This document shows positions 25,943 through 57,103 of a stretch of DNA of 64,000 bases, piece after piece. The notes beneath the pieces were generated by a model, which searched no databases, had not been told where the DNA came from, and saw only the letters and a program-made list of their open reading frames with translations. Made by a program: the position numbers and the translations under genes. This stretch comes from Candidatus Pacearchaeota archaeon (GTDB lineage Archaea; Nanobdellota; Nanobdellia; Pacearchaeales; GW2011-AR1), in NCBI GenBank assembly GCA_038874355.1, contig JAVZCO010000001.1, forward strand, positions 322,074-386,073, read 5' to 3'. The stretch's first letter is position 1. Each line of letters starts with the position of its first letter.

Positions 25943-27625
25943 ATGAAAAGTAAATTTTTAATTTTAGCAACAATTTTGTTTAGCTTAACAATATTAAATT
26001 TTGTTAGCGCAAGTTTAATTTTTTCTCAAAATTCAGTTTATCTATCAAAATCCATTAACTCAACAGAAATAATTTTAACAAATAATGAAAATGAAACTGT
26101 AACCATAACATATCCAACAACAATAACAATTTATTCTGGAACAATCTTAAGAGACGAAATTTCTTACTCTATAAGTTTAGAAAACGCAACTTTAGAAGAA
26201 GGAAATAGTACAAAAATTATTATATCTTTACAAAAAAGTCCTTCTAATTGGAAAAACTTCAAAATAGGAAAATTGTATTCAACTATTATTACCTTTACTG
26301 GGAATTATTCTAATTGGACAGATAATAAAAATTTAACTCTTTACTTTGTTAATGATTTTTGTAAATATGGTGAAGTAGGAAAAATAGAAATATATAAAGT
26401 TACAGACGAATTAAAAGATAATGAAGATGAATGGATATGGCATCCTCTTGATAATATAAAAATAAAAGTTAATGATGTTTATAATGGATTCGATAAGTCT
26501 AAAAAAATAAAAGTGGAATATGCTTTATATGATAGTAATGGAAAAAATAAACTTGATTTAGAAAATATAGAAAGATACAAAATATTGAAAATAGACAGTG
26601 GAGATGAAAAAGACGTAACTTTTGAATTTAGAATTCCAGCAGATATTGAAGAAGGAACATATAAATTATTTGTTAAAGCATACATAGATGAAGATGAAGA
26701 TGAAGGTTGTACTTCTATAATAAACAGCGAAACAATATATTATCAAGAAGTAGAAATTGAAAAAGAATATGATAGAGCAGTTATTATTGATGAATATGAA
26801 TTAAATCCTATACAAGCAACTTGCGGAGAAAATATAATCTTAAATTTGCCAATATATAATATAGGAAATAAAGATGAAGAAAAAGTCCTTGTTAATTTAT
26901 ATAATAAAGAGTTAGGAATAAATTTATATGAGGTAATAGAAGAATTAGAAAAAGGAGAATCTACCTATGTAACATTTAACTTTGAAATACCACAGAATGC
27001 AACAGAAAAAATATACAATCTTGAAATTATTACATATTATGATTATGATGAAGATAATTCAAAATGTAATAAAGATACAGATATATATTGTTATGATGAA
27101 GATTCAAAAACAGATTTAGAAAAAAAATTTTATCAATCTATAACTGTAAAAGGAAATTGTATAACAACAACAAAAGAAAAAAATGTAAAGATAATGGCAT
27201 CTTTGATGAATGAAGAAGAAATAAAAGCCGGAGATGAGGTAGAAATAAAAATAACTTTTACAAATACAGGAAATAAGACAACTTCTTATATAATCATGGC
27301 TAGTGATTATGAAGATTGGGCAAATTTAATAAGCCTCGAACCGCAATCTTTTAATTTAGTCCCTAGCGAAAGCAGAGATGCTGTATTGAAGTTTAAGATA
27401 AACAAAGATACTTATGGGGAACAAACTTTCAAGATTAAAGTTTTATTTGATGGAATAACAGAAGAAAAAAGCATATCTTTAGAAATTGAACCACAACAAT
27501 CAAAATTTACAATAAGATTACCCAAGATATTTGAAGAAAATAAAATTTTACTTTGGATAATAATTGTTAATATTATCTTAATAATATTAATAATAATTGT
27601 TGCTATAAAAGTGTCTAGAAGTTAA
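25943..27625 (+). CDS. secreted surface protein (S-layer/adhesin-like) with C-terminal TM anchor
   Basis: N-terminal signal peptide, many N-x-S/T sequons, beta-rich repeats, C-terminal hydrophobic helix followed by basic tail KVSRS. Confidence 0.55.
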   Translation: MKSKFLILATILFSLTILNFVSASLIFSQNSVYLSKSINSTEIILTNNENETVTITYPTTITIYSGTILRDEISYSISLENATLEEGNSTKIIISLQKSPSNWKNFKIGKLYSTIITFTGNYSNWTDNKNLTLYFVNDFCKYGEVGKIEIYKVTDELKDNEDEWIWHPLDNIKIKVNDVYNGFDKSKKIKVEYALYDSNGKNKLDLENIERYKILKIDSGDEKDVTFEFRIPADIEEGTYKLFVKAYIDEDEDEGCTSIINSETIYYQEVEIEKEYDRAVIIDEYELNPIQATCGENIILNLPIYNIGNKDEEKVLVNLYNKELGINLYEVIEELEKGESTYVTFNFEIPQNATEKIYNLEIITYYDYDEDNSKCNKDTDIYCYDEDSKTDLEKKFYQSITVKGNCITTTKEKNVKIMASLMNEEEIKAGDEVEIKITFTNTGNKTTSYIIMASDYEDWANLISLEPQSFNLVPSESRDAVLKFKINKDTYGEQTFKIKVLFDGITEEKSISLEIEPQQSKFTIRLPKIFEENKILLWIIIVNIILIILIIIVAIKVSRS

Positions 27626-28190
27626 TTTTTTTCTTTTTCTTTTTTATTCTTTTTTCTAGTAAAATATTAGTATAAATACCTATAAAATATCCAACAATAG
27701 AACCAAAAATAATATCTGTTAAATAATGTTCTCCTAAATATAATCTTGAAAAAGCTACTAAAAGAGAAAAAATTAACCAAAAAAACTTGTAATTTTTATC
27801 AAAAAAAGGTAGAAAATTAAAACCTAAAGCAGAATGAAAAGAGGGAAAACTATCTCTTTCTAAAGAAAAAGGCCTAGTTCTTAAAAATATTATCTTTAAA
27901 AAATAAATTATAACTATTGTTAAAAAAACTGAAATTGGAATTTTTATTGCATTTTTTTTATTTTGAAATATTAAAAATAAAAATATACTTAATAAAAAAG
28001 GTATCAAAAAATTATAAGAACTTATAAAAGACATAAAATTAAAAAGAAATTTGTTTTTATTATTGTAAAAAAAATTAACTATTTTAAAATCATAAATAAA
28101 AGATAAAAATAAAATAGTTATTAATAATATTAAAGAAAATAATTTAAGTTGGATATTTTTTATTTTTTTCTTTTTTTTAGAATTTTTCAT
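27615..28190 (-). CDS. PAP2-family membrane phosphatase
   Basis: PAP2 motifs KxxxxxxRP (LRTRPFS), PSGH-like SFPSFHS and SRxxxxxHxxxD-like SRLYLGEHYLTDI. Confidence 0.65.
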   Translation of the reverse strand: MKNSKKKKKIKNIQLKLFSLILLITILFLSFIYDFKIVNFFYNNKNKFLFNFMSFISSYNFLIPFLLSIFLFLIFQNKKNAIKIPISVFLTIVIIYFLKIIFLRTRPFSLERDSFPSFHSALGFNFLPFFDKNYKFFWLIFSLLVAFSRLYLGEHYLTDIIFGSIVGYFIGIYTNILLEKRIKKKKKKINF

Positions 28191-28241: not shown

Positions 28242-28781
28242 ATGAGAAAAGAAAGTAAAATAATTTTTTTTATTATTTTAAGATATCTTTCTTGTTTAAT
28301 TGTTTCTTTAAATGGTTTGTTTATATTCTATTATATATTTTCTCCAATAACTCTTCATTCTTTTTATTTTATAATAAAACTTTTTTATAATAATGCATCT
28401 TTATATGAAAATTCTGTTTTTTTAGATAATAGTAAGATAACTTTAGTTGAAGCATGCATAGCCGGTGCAGCATATTTTTTAATTTATATTTTAAACTTTA
28501 CAACACCAATGAAACCAAGAAAAAGAATATTCTCATTATTCTTTTCTTTTTCCCTATTTTTTATAATAAATCTTTTAAGAATTCTCATTTTTTCTTTTCT
28601 ATTCAAAAATAATTTCTTTTTATTTGAATTTTTACATTTGTTAGTTTGGTATTTTCTTTCAGCAATAATAGTTTTTTTTGTTTGGTTTTCTACTATAAAA
28701 TTATTCAAAATTAAAGAATTTCCAATCAGAGAAGATATAAAAAAATTTATTTCTATCTTAAAAAATGATAATAAAAAATAG
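28242..28781 (+). CDS. putative minimal exosortase/archaeosortase-family membrane protein
   Basis: Polytopic. Cys72 in VEACIAGAAY (compare ACSG) and Arg113 in NLLRIL are 41 residues apart, the same spacing as catalytic Cys173/Arg214 of ArtA. Confidence 0.35.
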   Translation: MRKESKIIFFIILRYLSCLIVSLNGLFIFYYIFSPITLHSFYFIIKLFYNNASLYENSVFLDNSKITLVEACIAGAAYFLIYILNFTTPMKPRKRIFSLFFSFSLFFIINLLRILIFSFLFKNNFFLFEFLHLLVWYFLSAIIVFFVWFSTIKLFKIKEFPIREDIKKFISILKNDNKK

Positions 28782-29303: not shown

Positions 29304-29720
29304 TCACATATCAACTACTACTTGAATTATGTATTTATTTTTAATCTTTTTTATAATCATATTATTATAAGTTATTGCCTTTATTTCTGAAAAAATTTCA
29401 TAATTTTTTGTTTCATCTCCAATTAATTCTGTTTTTAATTTTAATTTCTTTTTATCAATTTTTATTTTTTTAATCTTAGATGGAATAAAGTTTTTTGAAT
29501 AAATCAGAATTAAAATTTCTTCTAAAAAATTGTATAAAAGTTGTTCTAAGTTTTTACCATTTACACTAAAGATTATTTTTATTCTTTCCTTTATTTTATT
29601 TTTTGTTATTAAACTTAACATAGCATAAACAGAATTCTTAAAAGCTTCTTCTAGAGTTATTCCATAAGCTTGAAACATTCCATCTGCTGTATGTTCTAAA
29701 ATTCTAAATTTTTTCTTCAT
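29304..29720 (-). CDS. archease
   Basis: N-terminal ILEHTADGMFQAYGITLEEAF matches the archease FEHTADIG...LEELF block. Confidence 0.75.
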   Translation of the reverse strand: MKKKFRILEHTADGMFQAYGITLEEAFKNSVYAMLSLITKNKIKERIKIIFSVNGKNLEQLLYNFLEEILILIYSKNFIPSKIKKIKIDKKKLKLKTELIGDETKNYEIFSEIKAITYNNMIIKKIKNKYIIQVVVDM

Positions 29721-29721
29721 T

Positions 29722-30123
29722 TTATTCTTTCCACATAAAAATTTTTATAACCTTTGGTTCATATTGGTAAATTGTAGAAGAAATAACAGTTTCTGAAGAA
29801 AAGACTTCTTTTTTATAAAAATCCATTGAACATATTTCATCTAATGAACATATTCTTATTGTATAATTAAAAGATTTAGGTATTTTATTTTCTAAAAATA
29901 TAATTATTTTTTCTGTATTGTTTTCTAATACCTCTTTTCTTAATTCTTCATTATTAGATATTTCTAAAAGAAGGGCTTTTTGTAAAGAGTAAATTTCATC
30001 TGAAATGTCTGCTCTATTTACATTTTTCACATACAAAAAAAATAGAAGAGAAAATATTAGTAATACTGCTATAAAAGCTTCTATTATTCTTACCCATCCT
30101 TTTTTATTTTTACTTATTCTCAT
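29722..30123 (-). CDS. pilin-like protein (putative class-III signal peptide)
   Basis: N-terminal KNKKGWVRIIEAFIAVLLIF. Last gene of the pilus operon. Confidence 0.4.
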   Translation of the reverse strand: MRISKNKKGWVRIIEAFIAVLLIFSLLFFLYVKNVNRADISDEIYSLQKALLLEISNNEELRKEVLENNTEKIIIFLENKIPKSFNYTIRICSLDEICSMDFYKKEVFSSETVISSTIYQYEPKVIKIFMWKE

Positions 30124-30163
30124 TTTAATAATTTATTTTAAATTTACCCATTCATCATATCTT

Positions 30164-30898
30164 TTACCATACTTTTATTTGCATAAAAATATATTCAAAA
30201 GTCCCATTAGGATAAAATATTTGTTCTGGAATAGTTCTTGAATATACTACTGCCTTTTCTGGTGTATTGCCTAAACTTATTATTTTATTAGTTCTCTCTA
30301 AATTATAAAAGTCAATAGCAAAATTTTTTGTTTGTGGTAATCCAATTCTATCTTTTAGTTTTGAATAATTAGTTTCGTATTCTTTTTTGAAAGTTTCATT
30401 TAAATATTTAAATGAAATAGAATAATAACTTCTTAACATACCTAAAGTATAATTTTTTTTATCAATTTTTCTATTACAATTGTTCCCATCTAGATTATTT
30501 TCTAAAAAATCTTCCGAAAAATAAATATAATAAAAATCTATCTGAGAAGAAAAATTAGAATATATAACATAATTATTTTCTTTTATTGTATGCATGGAAT
30601 CGTAAATTGTGTTATTTAAATCTTTTTTTGTTAAATTCTTATTTCTTAAATTATCATCATCTTTAATCTCAAAATTATAACATCCTTCATAACTTTCATT
30701 TAATTTAATAGAATATATAATTATCTCTTTTTTCAATTCTTTTTCTATACTTTGCTGTAATAAATTTAAATATGTTTGTTCATTTCCCATTTTTTTAAAT
30801 GGATTAAAAAATATTAAAAGAAAAATTAAAAATCCTATGAAAATTACAAATGATAATAATATTTCAAGATGGCTTTGTGATTTTTTATTTTTTATCAT
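30164..30898 (-). CDS. pilus-associated / pilin-like protein
   Basis: N-terminal basic stretch followed by a hydrophobic helix (KKSQSHLEILLSFVIFIGFLIF), then an N- and Y-rich extracellular domain. Confidence 0.35.
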   Translation of the reverse strand: MIKNKKSQSHLEILLSFVIFIGFLIFLLIFFNPFKKMGNEQTYLNLLQQSIEKELKKEIIIYSIKLNESYEGCYNFEIKDDDNLRNKNLTKKDLNNTIYDSMHTIKENNYVIYSNFSSQIDFYYIYFSEDFLENNLDGNNCNRKIDKKNYTLGMLRSYYSISFKYLNETFKKEYETNYSKLKDRIGLPQTKNFAIDFYNLERTNKIISLGNTPEKAVVYSRTIPEQIFYPNGTFEYIFMQIKVW

Positions 30899-30909
30899 TT
30901 TAATTAAAT

Positions 30910-31791
30910 TTAGCCTATGAATGAATTTGCTCCTAAATAAATTAATAATGATGTTGTGATAAGGATAAAAGAGTGTTTTAATCCTGCTTTTATACTTCCT
31001 TCTGATAATTTTCCTATAATTATTCCAGCAAAAAAGCTTTGTACTAACAGTAATACAAACATCATTGTTGATACAGAAATCTCTTTTTCTTCGTTCGGAT
31101 TATTTTCTTGATTGGTCACATTATAAGAAGAAATATCTATATTTGTTGAAAAAATACTCGATTCTCCAAGATTAGATAATTCGCTTGTTAATGGAATTAT
31201 TTTGAATTGCATTATTAGCATAATGATTAAAAAAACAAAGAATATTATATAACCTTCTATTGTTAAACCATAAATTATTGCTTTTCTTTCTTCTTTTAAT
31301 TTTTCTATATCCCTGACAGATTTAGAAACATTTTCTAAAATATCTTCTATTGATCCACCAGCTTTTTCAGCTTCTTTTATTAACATTATAGATCTCGTTA
31401 CAATATTGCTTTTAACATCTTTAGCAAAAGTATCAAATGCTTTTGAAACAGGAATTCCTATAGATATTTGATTTGCAAGTTTTTGTATATAAAATGTTAA
31501 AGGACCATAATCCTTATTTCTTAAATTAATTATTGCTTTACTTATAGGAGTTCCTGATTTTACACTTTCTACTAAATCTCTAGAAAATTCTAAAAACATC
31601 CTTCCTTTTTCTTGTTCTTTGCTAGTTTCTAATACTAAATCAACAAAAAAAGGTAAAGTAGCAATTACGAATCCTACACTTAATAGAAAATAATACAAAT
31701 TTTTATCTTGTTTAAATAAAAAAATAAAACCAAATACTATAATCAAAAAAAAAACTATCATTCCTATAATGTGTGGTTTTTTTATTTTCAT
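30910..31791 (-). CDS. type IV pilus/archaellum platform protein, TadC/FlaJ-like (second T2SSF domain)
   Basis: GspF/T2SSF-like domain (TFYIQKLANQISIGIPVSKAF...IKEAEKAGGSIEDIL) flanked by TM helices. Confidence 0.65.
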   Translation of the reverse strand: MKIKKPHIIGMIVFFLIIVFGFIFLFKQDKNLYYFLLSVGFVIATLPFFVDLVLETSKEQEKGRMFLEFSRDLVESVKSGTPISKAIINLRNKDYGPLTFYIQKLANQISIGIPVSKAFDTFAKDVKSNIVTRSIMLIKEAEKAGGSIEDILENVSKSVRDIEKLKEERKAIIYGLTIEGYIIFFVFLIIMLIMQFKIIPLTSELSNLGESSIFSTNIDISSYNVTNQENNPNEEKEISVSTMMFVLLLVQSFFAGIIIGKLSEGSIKAGLKHSFILITTSLLIYLGANSFIG

Positions 31792-31792
31792 T

Positions 31793-33091
31793 TTAATAAC
31801 TTGTTTGTTTTAAATTTAAAAATAATATGAAAATTATGTTAATTATAGAGATACACCCTATAATAATAGATAATAACAGAACAGAGGAAAATCCTATATT
31901 TATTATTTTTGTTGACATTAAAGCTATTAACAATCCAAATATCATAGGAGCAGCAATAACAAGACTTATATAAATATCCATAAAAGTTTCTGCTTCTTTT
32001 GTATATTTCTCTTTTTCTATTTTATATTCAAAAAATAAAGTTTCTGCCCTCTTTTCCAAAAATTCTGTTATGTTTCCGCCGGTAGTTATTATTGCCCCTA
32101 TCCCTAAAAATAATTCCGATAATTCTTTAGATGGTGTTATCTTTGCAACGTTTTTTAATGCTGTAACTAAATCATAACCATATAAATTTATTTGATTCAT
32201 AACTTTAATAAACTCTTTCTTTATATTAGGGTATTCTTTACCAAAAGCAATTATCTTAAATATATAAGAAGGTTCTACTTTTGAGCTTGATATAGCGGCC
32301 ATATTTAAAACAACAAAAGGAAGTTCTTCTTTTATTTTTGTTTCTATACTTTTACTTTCTGTAGCAGGATAAAAATAAAAAATGAAAAAAGTAAAAAAGG
32401 GTAATAAAAAAATTATCCAAATATATTTGATTAAATCTAATTTTAAGAAAAAATAACCAAAAATCAAAAAAAAAATACTAAGTATAAAAGATAAAAAAGA
32501 AGAGAAAAAAGCCATAGACAGATAAGAATTTGTCAAAAATGGAATTGATGCTTTTTTTAAATTTTTTTCTAAATCAATAAAATATCCTTTTTTTAAAAGA
32601 GAATTAGAAAGATTAAGGAACATTTTATTAGAAATTCTTTTATAAAAATTAGATTTTGCTATATTCATAGAATAATCTTCTTGATTTTTAATTTTTTTTT
32701 CTTTTAATCTTTCTATTGCTTCTTCACTAATCCTTAATTCTTCCAAAAATTTTTCCTTATCTTTTTTATTAATTATTATGTTAATTTGTTTTCCTTTACT
32801 ATTATAACTTATATTTGAAAGCTCTTGCGAGCTTTCTTTTTTTAAATTTTTTTTATCTTTTACCTCATTTTTAAAAGGTGGAAATTCTCTGAAAGGAGAT
32901 ATATTCTCTATTATTTTTGGTATAGACTCGTTAAGTATTTTTAATTGATTTAATAAAGAATTTATTTTTTTTTCTATAATTATTTTTTCTTCTTTGCTAT
33001 TCGATAAAAAAAATTTTTCGTTTAAAGATATTACCTCGCTAATTATTTCTTTTTCTCTTTCAATATTTGATAATAATCCCTCTAGTGTCAT
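31793..33091 (-). CDS. type IV pilus/archaellum platform protein, TadB/FlaJ-like (first T2SSF domain)
   Basis: T2SSF-like domain (LYGYDLVTALKNVAKIT...GGNITEFLEKRAETL) with TM helices. One nt separates its stop from the downstream platform gene. Confidence 0.6.
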   Translation of the reverse strand: MTLEGLLSNIEREKEIISEVISLNEKFFLSNSKEEKIIIEKKINSLLNQLKILNESIPKIIENISPFREFPPFKNEVKDKKNLKKESSQELSNISYNSKGKQINIIINKKDKEKFLEELRISEEAIERLKEKKIKNQEDYSMNIAKSNFYKRISNKMFLNLSNSLLKKGYFIDLEKNLKKASIPFLTNSYLSMAFFSSFLSFILSIFFLIFGYFFLKLDLIKYIWIIFLLPFFTFFIFYFYPATESKSIETKIKEELPFVVLNMAAISSSKVEPSYIFKIIAFGKEYPNIKKEFIKVMNQINLYGYDLVTALKNVAKITPSKELSELFLGIGAIITTGGNITEFLEKRAETLFFEYKIEKEKYTKEAETFMDIYISLVIAAPMIFGLLIALMSTKIINIGFSSVLLLSIIIGCISIINIIFILFLNLKQTSY

Positions 33092-33258
33092 GTTAAAAGT
33101 TTAGATATTTGTGAATTTATTTTAATGATCTCTTTTTTAGTTTTTTCATAATTTTCAATATCTTTCTTTGTATAATATTCTTCTAATTTTCTACTTATTT
33201 GTTCTAATGAGTTAATTAAAATATACAACAAAGAGATTCTTTCTTTACTTAACATTTT
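33088..33258 (-). CDS. small coiled-coil ORF (56 aa) translationally coupled to the platform gene
   Basis: My own translation: MLSKERISLLYILINSLEQISRKLEEYYTKKDIENYEKTKKEIIKINSQISKLLT. Its TGA stop overlaps the ATG of the 31793..33091 gene. Confidence 0.2.
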   Translation of the reverse strand, partial: KMLSKERISLLYILINSLEQISRKLEEYYTKKDIENYEKTKKEIIKINSQISKLLT

Positions 33259-33311
33259 TCACTCTTTTTTAAAATAAAAGGATGTTAATTTTATAAATCT
33301 TTTGAATATAT

Positions 33312-34832
33312 TTAAGAAAGGAGATTATATTTTAACATTACTGCTTGTGGGTTTTTATAATATTCATTTATTTCTTTCTGTACTGTTTCAAAATCATATA
33401 TTTTTCTTTTAAATAATTCATATAACAGTCTTGTTCTTATCTCAAACTCTTTTAATATTTGTTGTTTAGTAAAACCATGCCTTTGACATATTTTATCAAA
33501 AACTTTTGATTCTTTTTTAAAATAAAATTTGTCATCTGCAGGATTCCATACAAAGGGGGTATTTGTAGTGGCTATTCCGTCAGGATCTACATTTATTATT
33601 TCAGAGATACTTCTTAATCTTCTTGTTTCTTGATTTTTTACAATAACATGACTCATTATTGTAACAACATCTAAAGTATTTACAAGTGTTGGAGATAGTT
33701 CTATTGGTGGTGTTTCTAATCTTTTTATTACCGTATCAACAGAATCTGCATGTATTGTTGATAAAGACGCGTGCCCAGAAGCCATACCTTGAAATAAAAC
33801 AAAAGCTTCTTTACCTCTTACTTCTCCCACTATTACATAATCTGGATTTTGTCTAAAAGAATTTTTTAATAAAGAAAAAAGATCAACTTCCCCAATATTC
33901 CCAGTTCCAATCGCAGTTCTAGCTACAGCAGGAACCCAGTTCTCTTTTGATAAATTTATTTCTCTAGTATCTTCTATAGAAACTATTCTTGCTTCTGGTG
34001 GTATAAAAAAAGAAATTGCATTAAGTAAAGTAGTCTTTCCAGAACCAGTTCCACCAGCAATTAATATGTTGCATTTATATTGTATTAAAATCCAAAAATA
34101 AGCAAGCATTTCTGGAGAAAGAGTATTCATAGACAAAAGGTGAATAGGAGTCCAAGGAGTTTTTGTAAATTTTCTTATTGTAAATGTAGGACCTCTACTT
34201 GTTACATCAGTAGTATATGTAGCATTAACTCTACTTCCGTCAGGTAAGGATCCATCTAATAATGGAGAAGCATAAGAAATATATCTACCACATCTTTGTG
34301 CAAGTTTTTCTACAAAACTTGCCAAATTTTCAATATCTCTAAAAATAATGTTTGTTCTTAAATTTCTATATAATCTATGGACAATATAAATAGGTGTATT
34401 AACTCCATTGCATTCTATATCTTCAATAAAATAATCATTTAATAAAGGTTCTATTTCATTAAATCCAATAAAATTTCTGTAAAGATAATAAAAAATTTTA
34501 TTGTAACTTTCTTCTGAAACTTTTAAAACAAGTTCAGAAATTAATAATTTAGCTGTTTTATCAATATATTCTATAAGTGATTCTATTGTTCTTTCTTTTA
34601 GTAAGTTTATATTTATAATCTCTTTCATTCCTTCTTCTAATTTAGAAAGAATTTGTTTTTCATAATCATTTAATATAGGTTCTTCTACTTCGTATAATAC
34701 TTCTTGTTCAGAATGATTCCAATAAATATGAACAAAAACGTATGGAGGTATTAATGCATATCTTAAATCTATTTTTGACCTATCGCTAAATCTTGGAAGC
34801 TGCGGAATAGTTGGTTTTAAGTTTATTTCCAT
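33312..34832 (-). CDS. FlaI/PilB-like type IV pilus/archaellum assembly ATPase (GspE/VirB11 superfamily)
   Basis: Walker A ILIAGGTGSGKTTLLNA, Asp box SIEDTREI, Walker B YVIVGEVRG, His box region. Confidence 0.85.
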   Translation of the reverse strand: MEINLKPTIPQLPRFSDRSKIDLRYALIPPYVFVHIYWNHSEQEVLYEVEEPILNDYEKQILSKLEEGMKEIININLLKERTIESLIEYIDKTAKLLISELVLKVSEESYNKIFYYLYRNFIGFNEIEPLLNDYFIEDIECNGVNTPIYIVHRLYRNLRTNIIFRDIENLASFVEKLAQRCGRYISYASPLLDGSLPDGSRVNATYTTDVTSRGPTFTIRKFTKTPWTPIHLLSMNTLSPEMLAYFWILIQYKCNILIAGGTGSGKTTLLNAISFFIPPEARIVSIEDTREINLSKENWVPAVARTAIGTGNIGEVDLFSLLKNSFRQNPDYVIVGEVRGKEAFVLFQGMASGHASLSTIHADSVDTVIKRLETPPIELSPTLVNTLDVVTIMSHVIVKNQETRRLRSISEIINVDPDGIATTNTPFVWNPADDKFYFKKESKVFDKICQRHGFTKQQILKEFEIRTRLLYELFKRKIYDFETVQKEINEYYKNPQAVMLKYNLLS

Positions 34833-34833
34833 T

Positions 34834-35370
34834 TTAAGATAAAATAAAATCTATTTGATATTTACTTGTTGTCTCTTCATACTTTACGTTTCTTATATAA
34901 ATTTTATATGGAATCGGTGTTTGTGTTAGTTCTTTATTTTCTTCTTTTCCGTTATATGTTATATTTACATTTTTTTCTTTATATTTCAAATACAATTTTA
35001 TTTTATAATCATTTGCCTTTTGTTCTGTTAAAATGTTTATGCTACCTCTTTTAACCTCTTTTCCAGGCTGGGAATAAGAATATTTACTATCAATTTCAAA
35101 TTCTATTGTATCATTTTCTGAGTTTATTCTCATTTTTCCTTTTTTTATCATTATCTCACTTATTTCTCTAGTATTTCCCGGGCCATACACAAGTAATTCT
35201 TGAATTTTTGATTCTATTATATTTAAACTTTCTATACTGTTTTCTATAATAAATTTATCTTGTCTTTCTTGTATAGTTGGTTTTACAACAGCAAGAACAA
35301 TTCCAATTATAGAAAGCATTATCACAGTATAAATTACAGTTTCTATCCATACCTGTCCTTTTATTTTCAT
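34834..35370 (-). CDS. pilin-like protein with class-III signal peptide
   Basis: MKIKGQVWIETVIYTVIMLSIIGIVLAV: basic residues, Gly, then a hydrophobic helix. Confidence 0.5.
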   Translation of the reverse strand: MKIKGQVWIETVIYTVIMLSIIGIVLAVVKPTIQERQDKFIIENSIESLNIIESKIQELLVYGPGNTREISEIMIKKGKMRINSENDTIEFEIDSKYSYSQPGKEVKRGSINILTEQKANDYKIKLYLKYKEKNVNITYNGKEENKELTQTPIPYKIYIRNVKYEETTSKYQIDFILS

Positions 35371-35377
35371 TTTACAT

Positions 35378-35866
35378 TTAAGTGCACTTTTTAATGTTAT
35401 ATGATTGTGATGTTATATCACAAGTTTTTCCATTAATCATAACAGTTATAGTAGAATAACTAACATTTCCTAAAGAAAATATATAAGTTAATGCTTCCCC
35501 TCTTTCTGGTAAAACTATTGTTGAAGATCCATCATACATTTTAACACCATTTAAATTAGTTCCATTTTTTAATTCATATCCTTTAGAACTTGCACCTGAA
35601 GATAAAGATATGTATATTCCATCTATTTCTTTTTGGTCAGATCCTCTTTCAATTTGTATTAATGTAGATGTACTATTAGAACAAGTATATTCTGAATCTA
35701 AAATATTTATATAATCCATATACTCATAACAAGAAGATTTTCCTATATCTTTATTAATAATTTCTTTTACAAACTTTCCTAAGGTTAATGTTGCTATTAT
35801 AGTTATTACTACTAATAACAAAGTAGCAATTACAGGAGATATTGCTCTTTTATTTTTTTTTATCAT
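35378..35866 (-). CDS. archaeal type IV pilin (class-III signal peptide)
   Basis: MIKKNKRAISPVIATLLLVVITIIA: the KR-A-ISPVIATLLLV pilin/archaellin N-terminal motif. Confidence 0.7.
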   Translation of the reverse strand: MIKKNKRAISPVIATLLLVVITIIATLTLGKFVKEIINKDIGKSSCYEYMDYINILDSEYTCSNSTSTLIQIERGSDQKEIDGIYISLSSGASSKGYELKNGTNLNGVKMYDGSSTIVLPERGEALTYIFSLGNVSYSTITVMINGKTCDITSQSYNIKKCT

Positions 35867-35903
35867 TTTCCCTCTTTTTTATATTAAATTATTATTTTTA
35901 ATT
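35804..35903. repeat. about 100-nt direct repeat, copy A (pilin 5' coding plus upstream region)
   Basis: About 97% identical to 36296..36395 at a constant offset of 492 nt. Confidence 0.7.
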
Positions 35904-35908
35904 AATTT

Positions 35909-36358
35909 TTATATGGTTTCTGCTAAAAAAGTATTCTCTTTACATGTATATTGTGTCTTTTTTCCTTTTTCATTTTCACCTAAAATAACAGGAATTACTT
36001 CTATTGAATCTTTATTTTTTAATGAATCATCTTTTATACTTTCTCCAGCACCTATTAGAATGCTTTTATTTATTTCATAATTCTTTATTTTTCCTTTTTC
36101 TTTTAATCTTAATTGTAAAGAATAAATTGGATAATTTCCTATATTAGAAAAACTAATTTCTCCACTATCTTTATTATAATAAACTTCTAATCTTATTTCT
36201 CCACATACTTGTTGTGCTGGTTTTTCTTTTTTTTGTATAGATTCTTTTATAAAACTTTTTGCCCATATAAAAACTATTAATACAAGAATTATTACTATTA
36301 CTACTAATAACAAAGTAGCAATTACAGGAGATATTGCTCTTTTATCTTTTTTTATCAT
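35909..36358 (-). CDS. archaeal type IV pilin (class-III signal peptide), paralog of 35378..35866
   Basis: MIKKDKRAISPVIATLLLVVIVIIL. The N-terminus is identical to its neighbour and the C-terminal domain is divergent. Confidence 0.7.
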   Translation of the reverse strand: MIKKDKRAISPVIATLLLVVIVIILVLIVFIWAKSFIKESIQKKEKPAQQVCGEIRLEVYYNKDSGEISFSNIGNYPIYSLQLRLKEKGKIKNYEINKSILIGAGESIKDDSLKNKDSIEVIPVILGENEKGKKTQYTCKENTFLAETI

Positions 36359-36395
36359 TTTCCCTCTTTTTTATATTAAATTATTATTTTTAATT
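36296..36395. repeat. about 100-nt direct repeat, copy B
   Basis: See copy A. Covers the first 21 codons and 37 nt upstream of the pilin gene. Confidence 0.7.
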
Positions 36396-36413
36396 TAAAT
36401 ACTTTTCTAAATC

Positions 36414-36920
36414 TCATATACAATTTTTTATTTCTTGTTCTATTTTTTGATTCGAACATAGTAATTTATCATTCTTTATAGTATGAGTTGGAATTACATT
36501 GATTTTTGTTATTAAATTCAAATTAGAATAATCAAAAATAGCCAAAACTTCTTCATTATCAGACGCATTTAAATTATTTTGAAAATAATATTCAAAACTA
36601 CTAATATTTCTTATTTTTCCTTGAGGAAAACTATTTTTTAAATTTATAGACATAATTGGTAATTGTGTAGAATTTGATGCTTTTATTATTGCCCCACTTA
36701 TGTCATATAGCCCCATATTTTTTAAGGTTAAATTTAATATTTTATTAGAAGAATCACAAGAATAATCCTTTATTATTAATGATAATGTTTCTGGACATTC
36801 TTCTGTTTTTGTAGGAATTTGTCTTTTCATCCATGTATAAACCAAGACACTCAAAGATAAAACTATTGTTATAATTAAAACATAAGCTACTATTTCACTT
36901 ATTGCTTTTTTATTTTTCAT
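36414..36920 (-). CDS. pilin-like protein (class-III signal peptide)
   Basis: MKNKKAISEIVAYVLIITIVLSL. Confidence 0.55.
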   Translation of the reverse strand: MKNKKAISEIVAYVLIITIVLSLSVLVYTWMKRQIPTKTEECPETLSLIIKDYSCDSSNKILNLTLKNMGLYDISGAIIKASNSTQLPIMSINLKNSFPQGKIRNISSFEYYFQNNLNASDNEEVLAIFDYSNLNLITKINVIPTHTIKNDKLLCSNQKIEQEIKNCI

Positions 36921-36932
36921 TTTACTATTTTT

Positions 36933-37490
36933 TTATTTTGAAGATACTGTTTGATTTCCTGTTGTGATTACAAAATAAAAGTTTTGTCCTTCTTTTATGT
37001 TAAAAGATTTATAAAAATTTATTTCTGGAACATTTATTAAAATTTTACCTTCTTCATCTAAGGTTTGGGTTATATCATAAATTATTATACTTCTTATTTG
37101 TGTGTTTTGGGTAATACGATCCCCTTCTCTTCCTATTTCCATACTTATTTCTCCACCAGTAGTAGAATTTATTATAATCGCCTTTAAATTATTTTTATCT
37201 CCATATATAAAAAGCCATGTTGGGTAAATTCCTTCTGTTGTTGTTACGTATTTTTGCGAATATTCTGTATAATTCGTGATCCAAATTTCTATTAAAGAAT
37301 TCAAATCTTTTTTATTAACTATCCCATAGTCAATAACCTTTGCGGTTTCTAATTCTATTACATCTTTTATACTATAAATTGGATATTTTTCCTCTTTTGT
37401 CCTTATATAATTAAAACTTAAAGTTATTATTAAAATTACTCCTATTATTATTATTGCAGCCATCAAGTAAAATTGATTTTTTTTATTCAT
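36933..37490 (-). CDS. pilin-like / pilus-associated protein
   Basis: MNKKNQFYLMAAIIIIGVILIITL N-terminal anchor. First gene of the operon. Confidence 0.4.
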   Translation of the reverse strand: MNKKNQFYLMAAIIIIGVILIITLSFNYIRTKEEKYPIYSIKDVIELETAKVIDYGIVNKKDLNSLIEIWITNYTEYSQKYVTTTEGIYPTWLFIYGDKNNLKAIIINSTTGGEISMEIGREGDRITQNTQIRSIIIYDITQTLDEEGKILINVPEINFYKSFNIKEGQNFYFVITTGNQTVSSK

Positions 37491-37649: not shown

Positions 37650-37918
37650 AAGAGTGCAGATCAGGAAGCTAGCTACATAAGAATTAATAAACTTATCTTG
37701 AGTATCCTTGTTCTTGTAACCCTACAAGCATCTTAACTTTTACTTAGTGCTGCTTCATTCCTGACCTCGCACGTTTCGTAAAAGCAAGATCGAGTAGGAC
37801 AAGAACTCATTGTTAACTCAAGGGTTTATTAATTCCTATCTCACCAGCTTCTTTACGGCTCGCCATAAGTCCATTTGCGATTGGCAGAGGACTAACCTGC
37901 CCACCTGATCTGCATTAT
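37650..37918 (-). ncRNA. ffs: signal recognition particle RNA (7S/SRP RNA)
   Basis: GC-rich island in AT-rich DNA. Terminal inverted repeat tgcagatcagg/cctgatctgca, as expected for helix 1. Minus strand contains GGUCAGGAAUGAAGCAGC, which matches the conserved helix-8 GGUCAGG...GAAGCAGC motif. Confidence 0.55.
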
Positions 37919-39701: not shown

Positions 39702-40973
39702 TTATTTCAATTCGTCACTAGCCCATCTTCTTAAAGCTTCTCTTAATTCATAATGATTTTTAGAATAATTTGCTAAACTTATTTTCTTCATACACGCGTC
39801 TACAGCTTGTCTCATTGCTTTTGCTCCTGCAATACTACCATAAGGATGGCCATGAATTCCTCCACCAGCTTGTATTAAAATATTATCCCCCAAATGTTTG
39901 ATTAAAAACGGAACGTGTCCAGGATGCAAACCGCCAGAACAAACTGCTAACATTGGCTTTATTTTATACCAATTTTGTTGTAATCTTGTTTTTGTCTCTT
40001 TAACATAATTTTCTTCTATTTCTTCTTCTATCTCATGAACTTCTTTAATACTGGTTTCCATTTTTCCTATACCAGTTCCTATATGTAAAGAATCTAATCC
40101 TATTAATCTAGCAATATCAGCTAAAACCATCATACTTACACCATGTTTTTCATTTCTTGTTAAAGCAGCGTGCATTGCTCTATGTCCGTGAATAACTAAT
40201 TTTAAATTTCTATTTTCTTTTGATAAAGTTTGCAAGGCAGAAAAACCAACAGTTAACATATCAACCATGATGAATTTAGCATTTTGTTTCTTTACTAATT
40301 CTGCTCTTCTTATCATCTCTTCTGTTTCTGCTGTTACATTAATCAAATAAGCTTTTTTTTCTCCTGTTTCTTTTTCTGCTTTATCTTTCATTTCTAATGT
40401 TTTTAATAATCTTTTTTCAAATTTGTTAAAATCCTGACTTGAAAGATTTTCATCATCTTTAACAAAATCACATCCTCCTAACCATGATTCATAAGCAGAT
40501 TTTGCATGTTCTTCTGTTTTTAATCCTAATTTTGGCTTAACAATTGTTCCAACTAATGGTCTTTTTTTTATTCTTAATATTTTTCTTATACCCTTTAATC
40601 CATATAAAGGACCATAAAAACTTTTAATTATAGATTTAGGAAATTGAATATCTTCTAATCTCAAAGCTTTTACATCTTTCATACCAAAAATATTTCCTGC
40701 AACACTGCTTAATATATTAGCCATATTTCCTTTTTCAAATAATTCAGAAGGATATGCTATCTTAACATATTCTCCTTTTATAGAAAACACTTTTGCTCTC
40801 AAATCTTTAACATAGTTAAATTTTGGTATTTCTGTCCAAGTTCCAACAGAAGATTCTGCTGCAACTCTTTCTGCAGCTTCTTTAATTGTTAAATTATTGG
40901 CCGGTTCTATTCTAAATAAACAAACAATATCGTCCTTTGGTGTGTATTTTAGATTTAAATATTCATCATACAT
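39702..40973 (-). CDS. rbcL: ribulose-1,5-bisphosphate carboxylase large subunit, form III (archaeal type)
   Basis: Carbamylated-lysine region KPKLGL, GGCDFVKDDENL (compare GGLDFTKDDEN), HGHRAMH, C-terminal GGGIHGHP. 423 aa with no small subunit. Confidence 0.85.
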   Translation of the reverse strand: MYDEYLNLKYTPKDDIVCLFRIEPANNLTIKEAAERVAAESSVGTWTEIPKFNYVKDLRAKVFSIKGEYVKIAYPSELFEKGNMANILSSVAGNIFGMKDVKALRLEDIQFPKSIIKSFYGPLYGLKGIRKILRIKKRPLVGTIVKPKLGLKTEEHAKSAYESWLGGCDFVKDDENLSSQDFNKFEKRLLKTLEMKDKAEKETGEKKAYLINVTAETEEMIRRAELVKKQNAKFIMVDMLTVGFSALQTLSKENRNLKLVIHGHRAMHAALTRNEKHGVSMMVLADIARLIGLDSLHIGTGIGKMETSIKEVHEIEEEIEENYVKETKTRLQQNWYKIKPMLAVCSGGLHPGHVPFLIKHLGDNILIQAGGGIHGHPYGSIAGAKAMRQAVDACMKKISLANYSKNHYELREALRRWASDELK

Positions 40974-43161: not shown

Positions 43162-43716
43162 CTATTTTATCTCTAAGTCAAAAAAAGTAGAAGCATACGG
43201 TTGACCGTTTTTATACAATTCTATTCTATATCTTATCATACAAATAGGACTTTCTTTTTCTGTAACTATTCTTATTAAACCATAGCTATAATCTCCAGGC
43301 CTAATTGTAAACTCATCTGTTTTTCCTTTTAATATCAACTCCATAGCTTCTTTTTCTGTTATCCCACATTGCTTTTTTAATTCACTAGAATCTTCTCCTA
43401 ATTTTACTTCATATTTAAACTTGCTTGCTTGATTACCACTATCTAAATTTTTTATTCCTATAGCAACACCAAATTCATTTCCTCTTTTTACTGTTGCTTT
43501 ATTATTTGCTAAATAAGTAATAATAGGATTTGAATCATCTTCAGAAAACATTTTGTTTATTTGTTCTTTTACTTTATCATTTATAGTATCTACATTATAT
43601 CTTGCTCCAGAAAAGATCGTTTTTATTAAAACTAATCCCATAATTAACATAGTCATAGCCAAAACTATTATAACAATAGTTCCTATACTTAATTCAATAG
43701 CAGCTCTTTTTTTCAT
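43162..43716 (-). CDS. secreted/pilin-like protein with N-terminal anchor
   Basis: MKKRAAIELSIGTIVIIVLAMTMLIMG, then a soluble domain. Confidence 0.35.
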   Translation of the reverse strand: MKKRAAIELSIGTIVIIVLAMTMLIMGLVLIKTIFSGARYNVDTINDKVKEQINKMFSEDDSNPIITYLANNKATVKRGNEFGVAIGIKNLDSGNQASKFKYEVKLGEDSSELKKQCGITEKEAMELILKGKTDEFTIRPGDYSYGLIRIVTEKESPICMIRYRIELYKNGQPYASTFFDLEIK

Positions 43717-52249: not shown

Positions 52250-52599
52250 ATGTGAGTTGGATATAAGCCGCATTCTGTCAATCCCTGCCTGAACAGACGG
52301 ATTGTGCCAACATTCGACTATGCCTCTTAAAAGAGTTGCACCGACTGAGTTGGCCGTTTCATCATATCTCTTGTTTCATAGTTCTTTGCATAATTCATTA
52401 CTCTACAAGAGCTGTGTCGTTTCTGTTCCAGAGCTTACTCTCACGAGTATCTTCCTTTCGGAAGACAGCCCTCTTTAACAAGAGTTGTCTCTTTTAGAAG
52501 AGACAAGGTGTGCGGACTTTCCTCAGAACCAGCCTTGATTACTTTTTCAAGGCTTGTTGATTTAACAACAGGTTCCGAAGTTGGCTATCCAACTCGCAT
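52250..52599 (-). ncRNA. rnpB: RNase P RNA
   Basis: GC-rich island with terminal inverted repeat gagttggata/tatccaactc (P1). Minus strand carries GAGGAAAGUCCGCACACC (P4 5' strand, consensus AGGAAAGUCCGGGC) and ACAGAAUGCGGCUUAU (P4 3' strand, consensus ACAGAAcCCGGCUUA). Confidence 0.75.
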
Positions 52600-52729: not shown

Positions 52730-55700
52730 ATGAAAAAAGAGATATTATTGTTATTATTTTGTTTTATTTGTTCATATGCACTGTTACCAGAAAATATTAC
52801 AGCTACTTGTTTAATACCTCCTTCTAATCCTTCTTATGATTACAACAATGATAATATAATTGATATTTATGATGTTAATTCTTTACTTCAAGTATCTATT
52901 GAATTAAGTAATTGTCAATCAAATAAAATTTGTGACCTAAATAATGATGGAATAATAGATATATCTGATGTTAATCTTCTTCAAAATTGGATTTATTCTA
53001 ATAACTGTCCTTTACTTAATTGTTCAGATAATCAGACCATAATGAAAGTTTCTAATATAACAAATGCTTATGCAGAAATTTGGAATGAAACAGAAAATTA
53101 TCTTTATCCAATCTGTTACCAAAATATATTCGGAGTCAATTATCCTGAACAAAATTCTCATGAATGTATAAAAAATAATAAAGTTATTGGGCTATCTTTG
53201 ACAAAAAACGCTCTTGCAGAGATTCCCTCTCTAAATAATTACCCGGTTAACGTTTGTTATGGAGATTTAGAATGTAACTCTACAAATCAATCTTGTGATT
53301 CTCTTGGCACAAATTATAAAGAGATTATAAGATTATCTAAAGAGACAAATGCTCTTTTAGAGATACCAATTAATTTTAGTTCATTTATTTTAGAGATTAA
53401 AGGAACATCAAAAGAAAATATATCGCATGTTAAAAATTATGAAAAAACAATAATATTAACAGATAAAATAGAAAATAAAACCATGATTGTACAAACCGAT
53501 ACATATGTAAATATTATGGAACCTCCTTCTAATTATCTTTCTTATTTTCCTTACCGGCAAACTACAAAAACATTTCAAGCAAATAAAGGGGATAATGTTA
53601 GTATAAAAGTTTTATACAAACAACAATTATCAAGTAATATTATCATTACTTACGGTATATACAAAAATGATATAAATATATATAATGTTACACAAATTAG
53701 AACACCAAACAAAGTTGGATTAGCAGCAGTATATAGAGAAGATAAAAGAGAATATTCTGAGAAAATAAAAGAATCAAAAGAAATAAGAAAAGAATATGCA
53801 GAAAAAGAAATAAAAAAATTTGGAAAAATTCCAGATAGTGTAATTAGCGAATCTTTAATGGATAATTTTGTTGGTTATTCTTATAGTGGCAGTAAAGATG
53901 TTAATAATTTTGTTACAATCAGTTCTGCTAATATTTATATAGATAATAATACAAAAGCAATAAAATTATTTCAAAAAGCAAGTACAATTGCTATTTGTGG
54001 TATGGTTAGAATGTGTATATCTACACCGAATGGATTATGTAATTCAAGTTATCAAAGCAATTATATGTTTCTTCATCATCTTTATTATGTAAATTATAAT
54101 GAAACCGGCGATTATATAATTCCTAATAATTTTGGTTGTAAAGGATATTATTATAATAAAAGCAGAGGAGATTTATACCTGCCTTCTTTAGATAAGAGTA
54201 TGGTTAGAATAGGAGAGATGAGAATAGATAATCCTCCTATTGGTAATCAAACTATTATCGTTCAAGTTGCTGGAACAAGCGACGTTTATTTAAGAGGAGG
54301 AGAAATATATTTAGAAAAAAATTCTAATTTATCACAAGAATTTATCGTAAGTAGTAATAATCCTTTTGTAAATGTTTATTTTTCAGATACGAAAGAAAAT
54401 AAAACAACTAATATAGCATCAGATATTCTAGGAAAATTATTGTTATATAACACTTTTCCAATAAAAATTTGTTGTAAGTCATTAATAGCCGAAAATATAC
54501 CATATCATCAAACAGAAGAACCAAATCAAACAGAATTTGGTTGTAATGTTAGTGAAAATCATCCTTATGATTATAATGATGATAAAGTTATTGATGCTTC
54601 AGATACAGGATTTTTACTAAAGGTTGCTTTAGAGTTAAATAACTGTCCATCAAATAAAATTTGTGACTTAAATAATGATGGAACAATAGATATATCTGAT
54701 GTTACTCTTCTAGTGAGATATATAACTGTAGATAATTGTAATATAACTATACCACAAATCCCAAAAGGAATAGCATACTGGGCTGATATGAATCAAAATT
54801 ATATAAATAAAACTAATGTAAATGATAGTGTATTAATGATATACAATATAGGAGAAGAATATAACGGACAGGAAATTAATTTTGAAGTTCATGAAGTAGA
54901 TAAAGGTTTATTTGATGTAGATTGTTCTGGTGACTGGCCTAATGAAGCAAGATATGCAAAAGCAAATGTTATTAATGGAAAAGCAATTGCTTTATGGAAA
55001 GCAAGATATTGTTCTAATGGAGAAAGTGATGGAGTTTATTTTATAGCAAAATTAAATGATACTATAAAAAATGAATCAGATATACTAGAAATTCTTTCTT
55101 ATAATAATGAAAAACCATATATAAAAATATTATCTCCTGAAAATGAAGATAAATTCTTAGTTAATAATGATATATCTTTTAATCTTTTCTATAAAGATGT
55201 AGATGACGAATTAGAAATAACATGGAATTTCAATAATGAAAATACAACAACTTTAACTAATTGCTTAAATAATAATTGTAATATAATAAAACATAGTTTT
55301 AATACACCTGGAGTTAAGATAATAAAAGTAAGAGCAAAAGAAAAGAATAGAGAACAATATTCAGAAGATGCAATATCCTTATATATTTATAAAGAAGGAA
55401 TAAATGTATTTGCAGTTATATCTAAACCAGATCCTAAAAAAGAAATAATAATTCAAAATATAACAAAAGTAGAATTTGACGGTTCTTCTTCATATGTATC
55501 AAATTGTACTAAATGTGAAAATAATATCTGTATAAATTGTCCTTCTAATAAAGAATGCTATAATGTAACAAGCAATACAGAAATATTACAATGTTTTGAT
55601 TTGCCAAAACCACAGCCAATAAATAGTCCTTTGCAAGGATATAACTTATGGTTTAATTGGACTATTTTAAGAGAAGATAATAACTTATACGGTAATATAT

Positions 55701-56608: not shown

Positions 56609-57103
56609 ATGAAAAAAATATTAAATTTGTTGTTTTTAGGTTATTTTTCTTTAGCAAGCCTTCTTCCTTTAGATTTAAAGGGAAAAAATTTAAAAAGAAT
56701 AGTAATAGATAAATCCGATAGAAAATTATATGTTTATGAAAATGATAAAATAATAAAAACTTTTCTCGTTGGTATAGGAAAAGAAGAATATGAAACTCCT
56801 ACTGGAAAATTTAAAATAAAAGAAATAAGAAAAGATCCTTATTGGATTCCTCCGGAAAAAGATTGGGCAAAAAAAGCAAAAAAGTATGTAAATGATAAAG
56901 GAGTAATTCCTTATGATCATCCTTATAATCCTTTGAGGTATTATTTTATTAATTTAGGAAATGGAATAGGAATTCATGGTTATAGAAATGATATGGGAAT
57001 AGGAAAAAAAAGTTCTCATGGTTGTATCAGAGCAAAAAAAGATTGTTTAGAGTACATTGTAAATAATTTTTTTATTGGAGACGAAGTAATAATTCAAGAA
57101 TAG
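56609..57103 (+). CDS. secreted L,D-transpeptidase (YkuD-domain) protein
   Basis: Signal peptide. YkuD catalytic region GIHGYRNDMGIGKKSSHGCIRAKKD (His...Cys). Confidence 0.7.
   Translation: MKKILNLLFLGYFSLASLLPLDLKGKNLKRIVIDKSDRKLYVYENDKIIKTFLVGIGKEEYETPTGKFKIKEIRKDPYWIPPEKDWAKKAKKYVNDKGVIPYDHPYNPLRYYFINLGNGIGIHGYRNDMGIGKKSSHGCIRAKKDCLEYIVNNFFIGDEVIIQE

Follow-up and report, generated by a model that had tools for sequence, protein, structure and literature searches.

The genomes of Pacearchaeota are very small, and a life attached to hosts is assumed for this group, of which to our knowledge no cell-surface structure has been characterised so far. The stretch of DNA analysed here, 64,000 nucleotides (nt) of a Candidatus Pacearchaeota genome with a G+C content of ~23% (the window), raises the question of what kind of surface filament such an organism might build. 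Eleven open reading frames (ORFs), all co-directional on the minus strand and running from 37490 to 29722, encode seven prepilin-like proteins, one ATPase of the FlaI/VirB11 superfamily, a FlaJ-like platform divided over two genes and a protein of 55 amino acids (aa). Our answer, to which we give a probability of about 0.8, is that these genes form an operon for the assembly of an archaeal type IV pilus, one of the type IV filament systems, in a DPANN archaeon. The same minus-strand block had been described in an initial annotation as a complete operon with spacings of 1–60 nt, and we recover all eleven ORFs. The gaps between them, in order from gene a to gene y, are 12, 55, 42, 7, 1, 56, −4, 1, 11 and 40 nt, so that the spacing holds for all gaps except a single 4-nt overlap, an ATGA in which the stop codon of the 55-aa protein meets the start codon of the N-terminal platform half. 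The word complete is an overstatement, because the class III signal peptidase that the system requires lies in neither the operon nor the window.

Assembly machinery and its conservation

The ATPase (506 aa, 33312–34832) matches Pfam T2SSE with 125.7 bits, and its motifs are intact: the Walker A motif GGTGSGKT at 260, the Asp box EDTREI at 287, the Walker B motif YVIVGEVR at 332 and the His box TIHA at 359. Compared with proteins of solved structure, it scores 396 bits with AfGspE of A. fulgidus (2OAP), 275 with FlaI of S. acidocaldarius, 176 with CpaF and at most 76 with VirB11. The best NCBIfam model is FlaI (NF058587) at 393.2 bits, which is under the equivalog cut-off of 550, whilst TIGR03819 (the TadA family) reaches 152 bits against a cut-off of 373. 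A PilB3-like C-terminal domain (PilB3_C) is weakly seen in the window ATPase and more clearly in its relatives. These scores support the assignment of the ATPase to the archaeal FlaI/GspE2 group and not to VirB11, GspE or PilT. Within this group it appears nearest to the Clade 2 representative AfGspE, a clade placement drawn from pairwise scores; AfGspE carries the label Clade2, arCOG01817 in Fig. S4 of Makarova et al. 2016. When the ATPase is compared with all representatives, the nearest clusters of normal length come from Aenigmarchaeota, Nanopusillus, Nanoarchaeota and one Thermoprotei metagenome-assembled genome (MAG), and carry generic names. The FlaI/PilB-family ATPase named in the initial annotation is therefore borne out; it groups with the archaeal filament ATPases and not with non-pilus secretion ATPases.

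Many of the DPANN homologues of the ATPase (P0224, P0233 and others) are 1,000–2,100 aa long and contain one to three inteins with LAGLIDADG homing endonucleases, marked by the Pfam domains Intein_splicing and LAGLIDADG_3. The window ATPase is intein-free, and the RtcB of one related locus (L086) is intein-bearing.

For the relatives, we took one genome per species, which gave 80 loci under the labels Pacearchaeota, Woesearchaeota, Nanoarchaeota or similar; their ATPases share 65–75% identity with the query. Hidden Markov models of the window proteins were mapped onto all ORFs of the related loci, and counts of gene positions use the loci with enough flank. The gene order a b c d e–ATPase–s–FN–FC–x–y–archease, where s encodes the 55-aa protein and FN and FC the two platform halves, recurs repeatedly among the species-level loci. 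Genes c, d and e lie directly upstream of the ATPase in 46 of 59 loci, and FN, FC, x and y lie downstream of it in 43 of 55. In the two closest relatives, whose ATPases are 84–87% identical to that of the window, the eleven-gene set is identical and is followed by archease, with RtcB one or two genes further. The pilin-like proteins of these two relatives are 44–66% identical to those of the window, from which it follows that they evolve much faster than the ATPase.

The platform is encoded by FN (432 aa, 31793–33091) and FC (293 aa, 30910–31791). FN has a cytoplasmic extension of ~185 aa, one Pfam T2SSF domain (45.1 bits, residues 263–388) and transmembrane (TM) helices; FC has the second T2SSF domain (63.6 bits), again with TM helices. 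They match positions 11–244 and 265–536, respectively, of the 555 positions of the ArlJ/FlaJ profile. Because the two proteins cover successive segments of this profile, they make up, as read from the alignment, a single FlaJ-like platform, of which FN is the N-terminal and FC the C-terminal half. The initial annotation had counted two T2SSF membrane platform proteins. The two T2SSF genes are indeed present, but they are halves of one platform and not two full platforms. They stand 1 nt apart in the window and are translationally coupled. Among the relatives, the platform is split in 52–53 of 55 loci and in every locus showing both halves, with a modal gap of 1 nt (65 loci).

Between the ATPase and the platform lies gene s (P55, 33088–33255), which encodes a small and polar protein; no membrane segment is predicted in it, and it matches no Pfam or NCBIfam family. 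A GAGTG motif stands 5 nt upstream of the ATG of gene s, and 50 of 55 species-level loci have a small ORF of 53–64 aa in this place.

Seven pilin-like proteins

Each of the seven pilin-like proteins has a single N-terminal hydrophobic helix with basic residues before it. A strict FlaFind-like rule, [KR][GA][ALIFQMVED][ILMVTAS] followed by a hydrophobic stretch, was applied to the 91 window ORFs of at least 60 aa; five satisfied it, and four of these are neighbouring genes of the operon. The remaining candidates in the operon are each one residue short of the rule. They are gene a (P185, 185 aa, 36933–37490), with the N-terminus MNKKN/QFYLMAAIIII (the slash stands between positions −1 and +1), gene x (P244, 244 aa, 30164–30898), with KKS/QSHLEILLSF, and gene y (P133, 133 aa, 29722–30123), with NKKG/WVRIIEAFIAV. 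Their orthologues in 35 to 62 other genomes have K-[KR]-[G/A] at the motif position. Counted by column over 35–72 orthologues per family, positions −3 to −1 read K-[KR]-[G/A, rarely S] in each of the seven families.

Behind this motif, each family has its own pattern. The gene a family (n = 35) reads K-[RK]-[G30/A5] at −3 to −1, with Q+1 in 34 of 35. S+2 and Y+7 are invariant in 36 orthologues of gene b, and the signature S-P-x-I-A-T marks the gene c family. In the gene e family Q+1, W+3, E+5, Y+9 and P+26 are found in 70 of 70 sequences, and G+13 in most. The gene x family (n = 62) has K-[KR]-[G39/A17/S5] at −3 to −1, with H+3 in 59 of 61 and E+5 in 60 of 61, and the gene y family (n = 56) has K-[KR]-[G40/A16], an aromatic residue at +1 in 46 of 56 and E+6 in all 56. 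Since both the −3 to −1 motif and these family invariants are conserved across orthologues, the alignments provide strong evidence for all seven families as predicted substrates of a prepilin-type peptidase. The pilin candidates do, then, carry predicted cleavage motifs. The initial annotation had listed five or more proteins with class III signal peptides together with two further N-terminally anchored proteins; the prepilin motif stands, and the separation of the last two does not, as the motif is found in the families of all seven. The two proteins that it singled out for a classic motif are P149 and P162 (genes c and d), which share a near-identical start, M-I-K-K-[D/N]-KRAISPVIATLLLVVI.

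Three of the seven, genes b, c and d, are related to known pilins. Gene b (P168, 168 aa, 36414–36920; N-terminus KKA/ISEIVAYVLII) matches TIGR02537, the archaellin/pilin N-terminal domain, with 20.3 bits (cut-off 20). Gene c (P149, 149 aa, 35909–36358; KRA/ISPVIATLLLVVI), a candidate major pilin, matches Pfam Pilin_N with 30.6 bits (gathering score 25.2) and TIGR02537 with 32.5 bits. Gene d (P162, 162 aa, 35378–35866; KRA/ISPVIATLLLVVI), the second candidate major pilin, matches TIGR02537 with 30.9 bits and Pilin_N with 22.6 bits, the latter below the cut-off. The three are mutually full-length paralogues (hhalign probability 98–99%; c against d, E = 1e-17). Pilins of the PilA/Pilin_N type, as found in Clade 2 / System 2, are therefore present as candidate major pilins. 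The 46 members of the c family match Pilin_N only, and never the archaellin family (Arch_flagellin).

The closest solved relative of the c family is the type IV pilin of Pyrobaculum calidifontis (PDB 8FK7), to which the profile of the 46 sequences aligns with E = 1e-10. The alignment spans positions 4–111 of 148 in the c profile, that is, the N-terminal helix and most of the globular head. Two cysteines, C52 and C139, are invariant in the c family, and a conserved intramolecular cysteine pair is common to both proteins (PMC10334743). In both, too, the hydrophobic helix runs on into a polar stretch (KSFIKESIQKKEK in window gene c). The Pyrobaculum filament comes from another organism and another ATPase lineage, and its locus has a KaiC-like gene whereas there is none here (PMC10334743).

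Genes c and d are also linked at the nucleotide level. A direct repeat of 108 nt, 96% identical, is common to them (35796–35903 and 36288–36395) and runs from the 5′ untranslated region through the ribosome-binding site into the coding sequence, of which it covers the first 71 nt, whereas the remaining protein is ~21% identical. A Shine–Dalgarno-like GAGGG stands 4 nt ahead of the ATG of gene c, and a GAGGG ribosome-binding motif is present at gene d as well. Over 42 genomes, the N-terminal identity of c and d is 0.405 within genomes versus 0.365 between them (permutation p ~ 2e-4). Because the near-identical 5′ repeat contrasts so strongly with the identity elsewhere, these data suggest that gene conversion keeps the leaders and helix starts of c and d alike, which is consistent with both proteins being in the same filament.

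The other four, a, e, x and y, are separate families that have the N-terminal region alone in common with each other and with b, c and d. Gene a has no relative in Pfam, NCBIfam or PDB. Gene e (P178, 178 aa, 34834–35370; KIKG/QVWIETVIY) is the best-conserved pilin-like protein of the operon and a candidate minor or priming pilin. Its model, built from an 89-sequence alignment, has a predicted local distance difference test (pLDDT) score of 95.3, with a helix over residues 3–62 and then a ten-strand beta domain, a predicted architecture of the classic pilin "lollipop" kind. The AlphaFold2 model of gene x (11 sequences, pLDDT 89.3) has a TM helix at 6–30, a further helix at 39–55 and two beta-rich parts, which form a large head and make it a candidate minor or tip pilin. 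Foldseek searches of the e and x models against PDB gave nothing at E ≤ 0.001, and for this reason we claim no fold-level homology for their heads. Profile searches of a, e, x and y against PDB gave no significant match and neither FlaF nor FlaG among the matches listed, the e profile having sub-threshold matches on the N-termini of bacterial pilins. Gene y, like gene a a candidate minor pilin, belongs to a family with two near-invariant cysteines. The models of e and x thus indicate a pilin architecture whose heads have no solved relative, which is not proof of a specific homology. For these four families and the 55-aa protein alike there is no match among curated or described families, as is typical of fast-evolving pilus accessory proteins.

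The fifth ORF that satisfied the strict rule is a stand-alone gene (43162–43716, minus strand) for a 184-aa protein with the canonical class III-type motif KKRA/AIELSIGT. Neither a matching family nor, in the related loci, a clear homologue was seen for it. From its N-terminus, this may be a pilin encoded in trans, or else a different protein processed by the same peptidase.

Filament type and likely role

The general steps of assembly (insertion, leader removal, action of ATPase and platform, and addition at the base) follow established knowledge of type IV filaments. On this pattern, prepilins a–e, x and y would enter the membrane, and their short basic leader would be cut off by a class III signal peptidase whose gene would lie in another part of the genome. 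The ATPase hexamer would dock onto the cytoplasmic T2SSF domains of the two-part platform, with the 55-aa protein perhaps acting as a small cytoplasmic partner of ATPase or platform, and ATP hydrolysis would pull the pilins out of the membrane into the base of the growing filament. The Pilin_N paralogues b, c and d would build the shaft, whilst a, e, x and y would serve as minor pilins, with a part in priming or a place at the tip, like bacterial minor pilins and pseudopilins. We infer this division of labour from family membership, the pattern of conservation and the bacterial analogy. Within the shaft group c and d appear the best candidates, because they have strong ribosome-binding sites of their own and a near-identical 5′ end.

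What such a pilus would do is suggested by literature and lifestyle and not by the sequence. Pacearchaeota are enriched in the >2.5 μm fraction, that is, host-attached, and cryo-transmission electron microscopy (cryo-TEM) has revealed pili joining ultrasmall cells to their hosts (PMC7906910). Genes of the fla/pil type are among the most highly expressed in metatranscriptomes of Woesearchaeota (PMC11606122). Adhesion to a host cell or a surface is, on this basis, a plausible role and the most likely one. The same machine might instead build a pilus or short pseudopilus mainly for DNA uptake or for DNA exchange between cells, as in the Com and Sulfolobus Ups systems. The combination of a single ATPase and a single platform with several minor pilins, of which two have an E5 of the bacterial type, resembles the layout of Com and type II secretion systems (T2SS), genes b and c have weak matches to the NCBIfam model of UpsA (E = 2e-5 and 3e-6, respectively), and the literature on ultrasmall cells ties type IV pilins to uptake of extracellular DNA as well as to adherence (PMC9938205). 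The UpsA matches are, however, far under the cut-off (24–27 bits versus 130), and no ComEC, DprA or Ups-type DNA-processing gene was found by Pfam and NCBIfam among the ORFs scanned in the operon and window, which were not every ORF. We think it unlikely that DNA transfer is the main function, although DNA uptake and adhesion are not mutually exclusive.

A reduced archaellum or "flagellar-like" filament for motility is a further rival reading. The likeness to the archaellum (FlaB/ArlB, FlaF, FlaG, FlaH, FlaI, FlaJ) lies in a homologous ATPase and platform and in the logic of the class III signal. FlaI and FlaJ are the top NCBIfam models, with FlaI as the best match of the ATPase (393 bits) and both platform halves on the ArlJ/FlaJ models. 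The closest solved relative of the c family is a pilin described as "flagellar-like", and papers on MAGs label such genes flaB, flaI and flaJ. Nevertheless, all of these matches are below their equivalog cut-offs, including that of the ATPase to FlaI (393 versus 550), and the ATPase is closer to a Clade 2 pilus-type ATPase (396 bits) than to the solved FlaI (275 bits). The platform is split. In Pfam no operon protein matches archaellin (Arch_flagellin), and neither do the 46 c-family members; FlaH/KaiC, FlaF, FlaG, FlaX and FlaCDE are absent from the operon and from those window ORFs that were scanned with Pfam and NCBIfam, not every window ORF being included. Even the P. calidifontis filament is without supercoiling (PMC10334743). 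We consider a motility filament very improbable. Since no archaellin, FlaH, FlaF or FlaG was found and the ATPase falls below the FlaI cut-off, the reading of the filament as a pilus and not an archaellum is supported by the gene content. The initial annotation had come to the same view from the lack of FlaH, FlaG and FlaF genes, and the Pilin_N matches add to it. A bindosome-like or secretion-type assembly that displays or exports proteins without a long filament can be set aside as highly improbable: it has in its favour the bindosome ATPase BasE as second-best NCBIfam match of the ATPase (220 bits), a 2026 preprint that argues for a widespread reuse of type IV filament machines in substrate binding, and the stand-alone class III-signal protein at 43162–43716, but BasE and BasF score 220 and 34 bits against cut-offs of 1000 and 1300, no substrate-binding protein or ABC transporter lies in or beside the operon, and the three Pilin_N paralogues are related to a solved filament subunit.

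Several observations weigh against the assignment as a pilus assembly operon. Window gene a has asparagine at −1 (residue 5), where its orthologues have glycine (30 of 35) or alanine (5 of 35) and the two closest relatives read KRG/QFYL. Because asparagine replaces glycine or alanine at this position, processing of the protein in the source organism is doubtful, and the substitution may block cleavage. The heads of e and x match no solved pilin significantly, so their role as minor pilins would follow from the N-terminus and the gene context. Sequence does not separate adhesion from DNA uptake, twitching or another pilus function, and the filament of the source organism is predicted from its genes. 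Lastly, no class III signal peptidase (PibD, FlaK or EppA) is found by Pfam among the multi-TM ORFs of the 64-kb window, in agreement with the initial annotation, and none was found in ~1.3 Mb of flanks of 84 related loci searched for a GxGD-type motif and by clustering of multi-TM ORFs. As a separate observation on gene a, its −1 codon lies within an A-rich run, so that the asparagine may be either a genuine loss of the cleavage site or a sequence error. The two Logan contigs matched by proteins of the window edges (9.9 kb and 2.1 kb) carry no peptidase either.

In archaea, pilus loci and the gene for the class III signal peptidase commonly lie apart. For this reason the absence of this gene from the window is to be expected, the more so as flaK has been reported in most Woesearchaeota MAGs (PMC11606122).

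Neighbouring genes and known systems

The operon is followed by archease (29304–29720, minus strand; Pfam Archease, 116.7 bits), the twelfth co-directional gene, 1 nt after gene y. Of 49 species-level loci, 17 likewise have archease directly after gene y and on its strand. It stands after the pilus cluster in loci L001–L004, L085 and L086, and RtcB is found one or two genes beyond it in L001, L002, L085 and L086. A housekeeping gene for an RNA-ligase cofactor thus seemingly shares a transcript with the pilus operon; it is probably co-transcribed with the pilus genes and not a pilus component. On the other side, 163 nt upstream of gene a, is a signal recognition particle (SRP) RNA gene (37654–37915, minus strand; Rfam RF01857, 104 bits), so that the 508-bp "intergenic" stretch upstream of the operon is mostly RNA gene. 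Of seven related loci tested only L009 has an SRP RNA next to the pilus locus (7081–7337, just upstream of the pilin genes), and we therefore treat the adjacency as incidental. The divergent 560-aa ORF beyond the SRP RNA is one that we take, by eye, for an arginyl-tRNA synthetase.

About 0.5 kb beyond archease there is a pacearchaeosortase (28242–28781, plus strand; NF033505, 165 bits, cut-off 80), in accord with the taxonomic assignment. It is adjoined by a 560-aa CARDB-domain surface protein with a C-terminal TM helix (25943–27625, plus strand), its likely sorting substrate, and a PAP2 phosphatase (27615–28190, minus strand) lies nearby. The pacearchaeosortase and CARDB protein region is a second cell-surface module close to the pilus operon. 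Further away are a surface protein of 1,025 aa that contains dockerin and PKD domains (52730–55807, plus strand), a secreted cysteine protease of the papain family that has a metal-binding motif of the MopE type (59594–61561, plus strand) and a YkuD-type L,D-transpeptidase domain protein with a hydrophobic N-terminus (56609–57103, plus strand; Pfam, 87 bits). Protease genes of a similar kind are found near the pilus cluster in relatives L085 and L086. An archaeon should have no peptidoglycan, and the YkuD-type protein could, from its domain, act on the cell wall of a bacterial host. A form III RuBisCO (39702–40973, minus strand; TIGR03326, 573 bits) and the archaeal RNase P RNA (52252–52597, minus strand; RF00373, 120 bits) are nothing unusual in DPANN genomes.

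Archaeal type IV filament loci have already been catalogued (Makarova 2016; Sivabalasarma and Albers 2026 preprint), type IV pilus genes are routinely reported from DPANN genomes, and split platforms are on record for System 1, some DPANN 4A loci and many Clade 2 loci. Clade 2 includes some Nanoarchaea, and many of its loci have two tadC-like genes (Makarova 2016). By ATPase and pilin type, the window locus fits best with the Clade 2-type systems. It has in common with Clade 2 / System 2, represented by PilB3–PilC3 with PilA pilins of Haloferax volcanii and by A. fulgidus AfGspE, the closest ATPase, the PilB3-like C-terminus and pilins of the PilA/Pilin_N type. It differs from them in its four accessory pilin-like families and its 55-aa protein, which match no described family, and in having no large adhesin and no MinD/FleN gene in the locus.

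The Epd system of Methanococcus maripaludis (System 1, Clade 1, the archaeal relative of the bacterial Tad pili) is likewise encoded by an operon of about eleven genes, two of them for the platform. The substrates of EppA-type peptidases carry a QXSXEXXXL signature, with which several of the window pilin-like proteins agree (Q+1, E+5); as in the Epd-type systems, Q+1 is found in families a and e, and E+5 in e and x. Here, however, the ATPase scores 396 bits with AfGspE versus 176 with the Tad ATPase CpaF, in a set of references without the archaeal EpdL. The window pilin-like proteins are all at least 133 aa long and have a globular part, with no ~70-aa head-less pilin among them, and no 9-TM EppA peptidase is present in the locus or window. 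System 1 has been reported in DPANN (Sivabalasarma and Albers 2026 preprint).

There is a likeness, too, to the minor pilins of bacterial type IV pili, T2SS and Com systems. Protein e has E+5, mostly G+13, and P+26, a helix of ~60 residues and a beta-sheet head, and some of its orthologues are labelled "PulG" by the Joint Genome Institute. This likeness is limited to the N-terminal helix, with all scores below significance, and unlike the bacterial type IV pili and T2SS the window machinery is archaeal (FlaI/FlaJ-type), with no secretin and no PilM, PilN or PilO.

The locus leaves the general understanding of type IV filaments unchanged. A tentative further suggestion, which we regard as rather doubtful, is that it represents a distinct DPANN-specific subtype of type IV filament beyond the existing archaeal subsystem models, one that might combine a Clade 2-like ATPase, Pyrobaculum-like shaft pilins and four dedicated families of minor pilins whose head folds would be new, the helix of two of these families bearing a bacterial-style E5. 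If this were true, the subtype could be the filament seen by cryo-TEM reaching from ultrasmall cells into their hosts. What is gained is a parts list of two or three candidate shaft pilins, four candidate minor pilins, a split platform and a small putative partner protein, which can guide proteomics, the assignment of filaments in cryo-electron tomography, and antibody or labelling work in enrichment cultures. Few multi-gene blocks around this ATPase are as conserved in these lineages as the operon, which occupies ~7.8 kb of a contig of ~0.58 Mb, and for both reasons it is probably important to these archaea.

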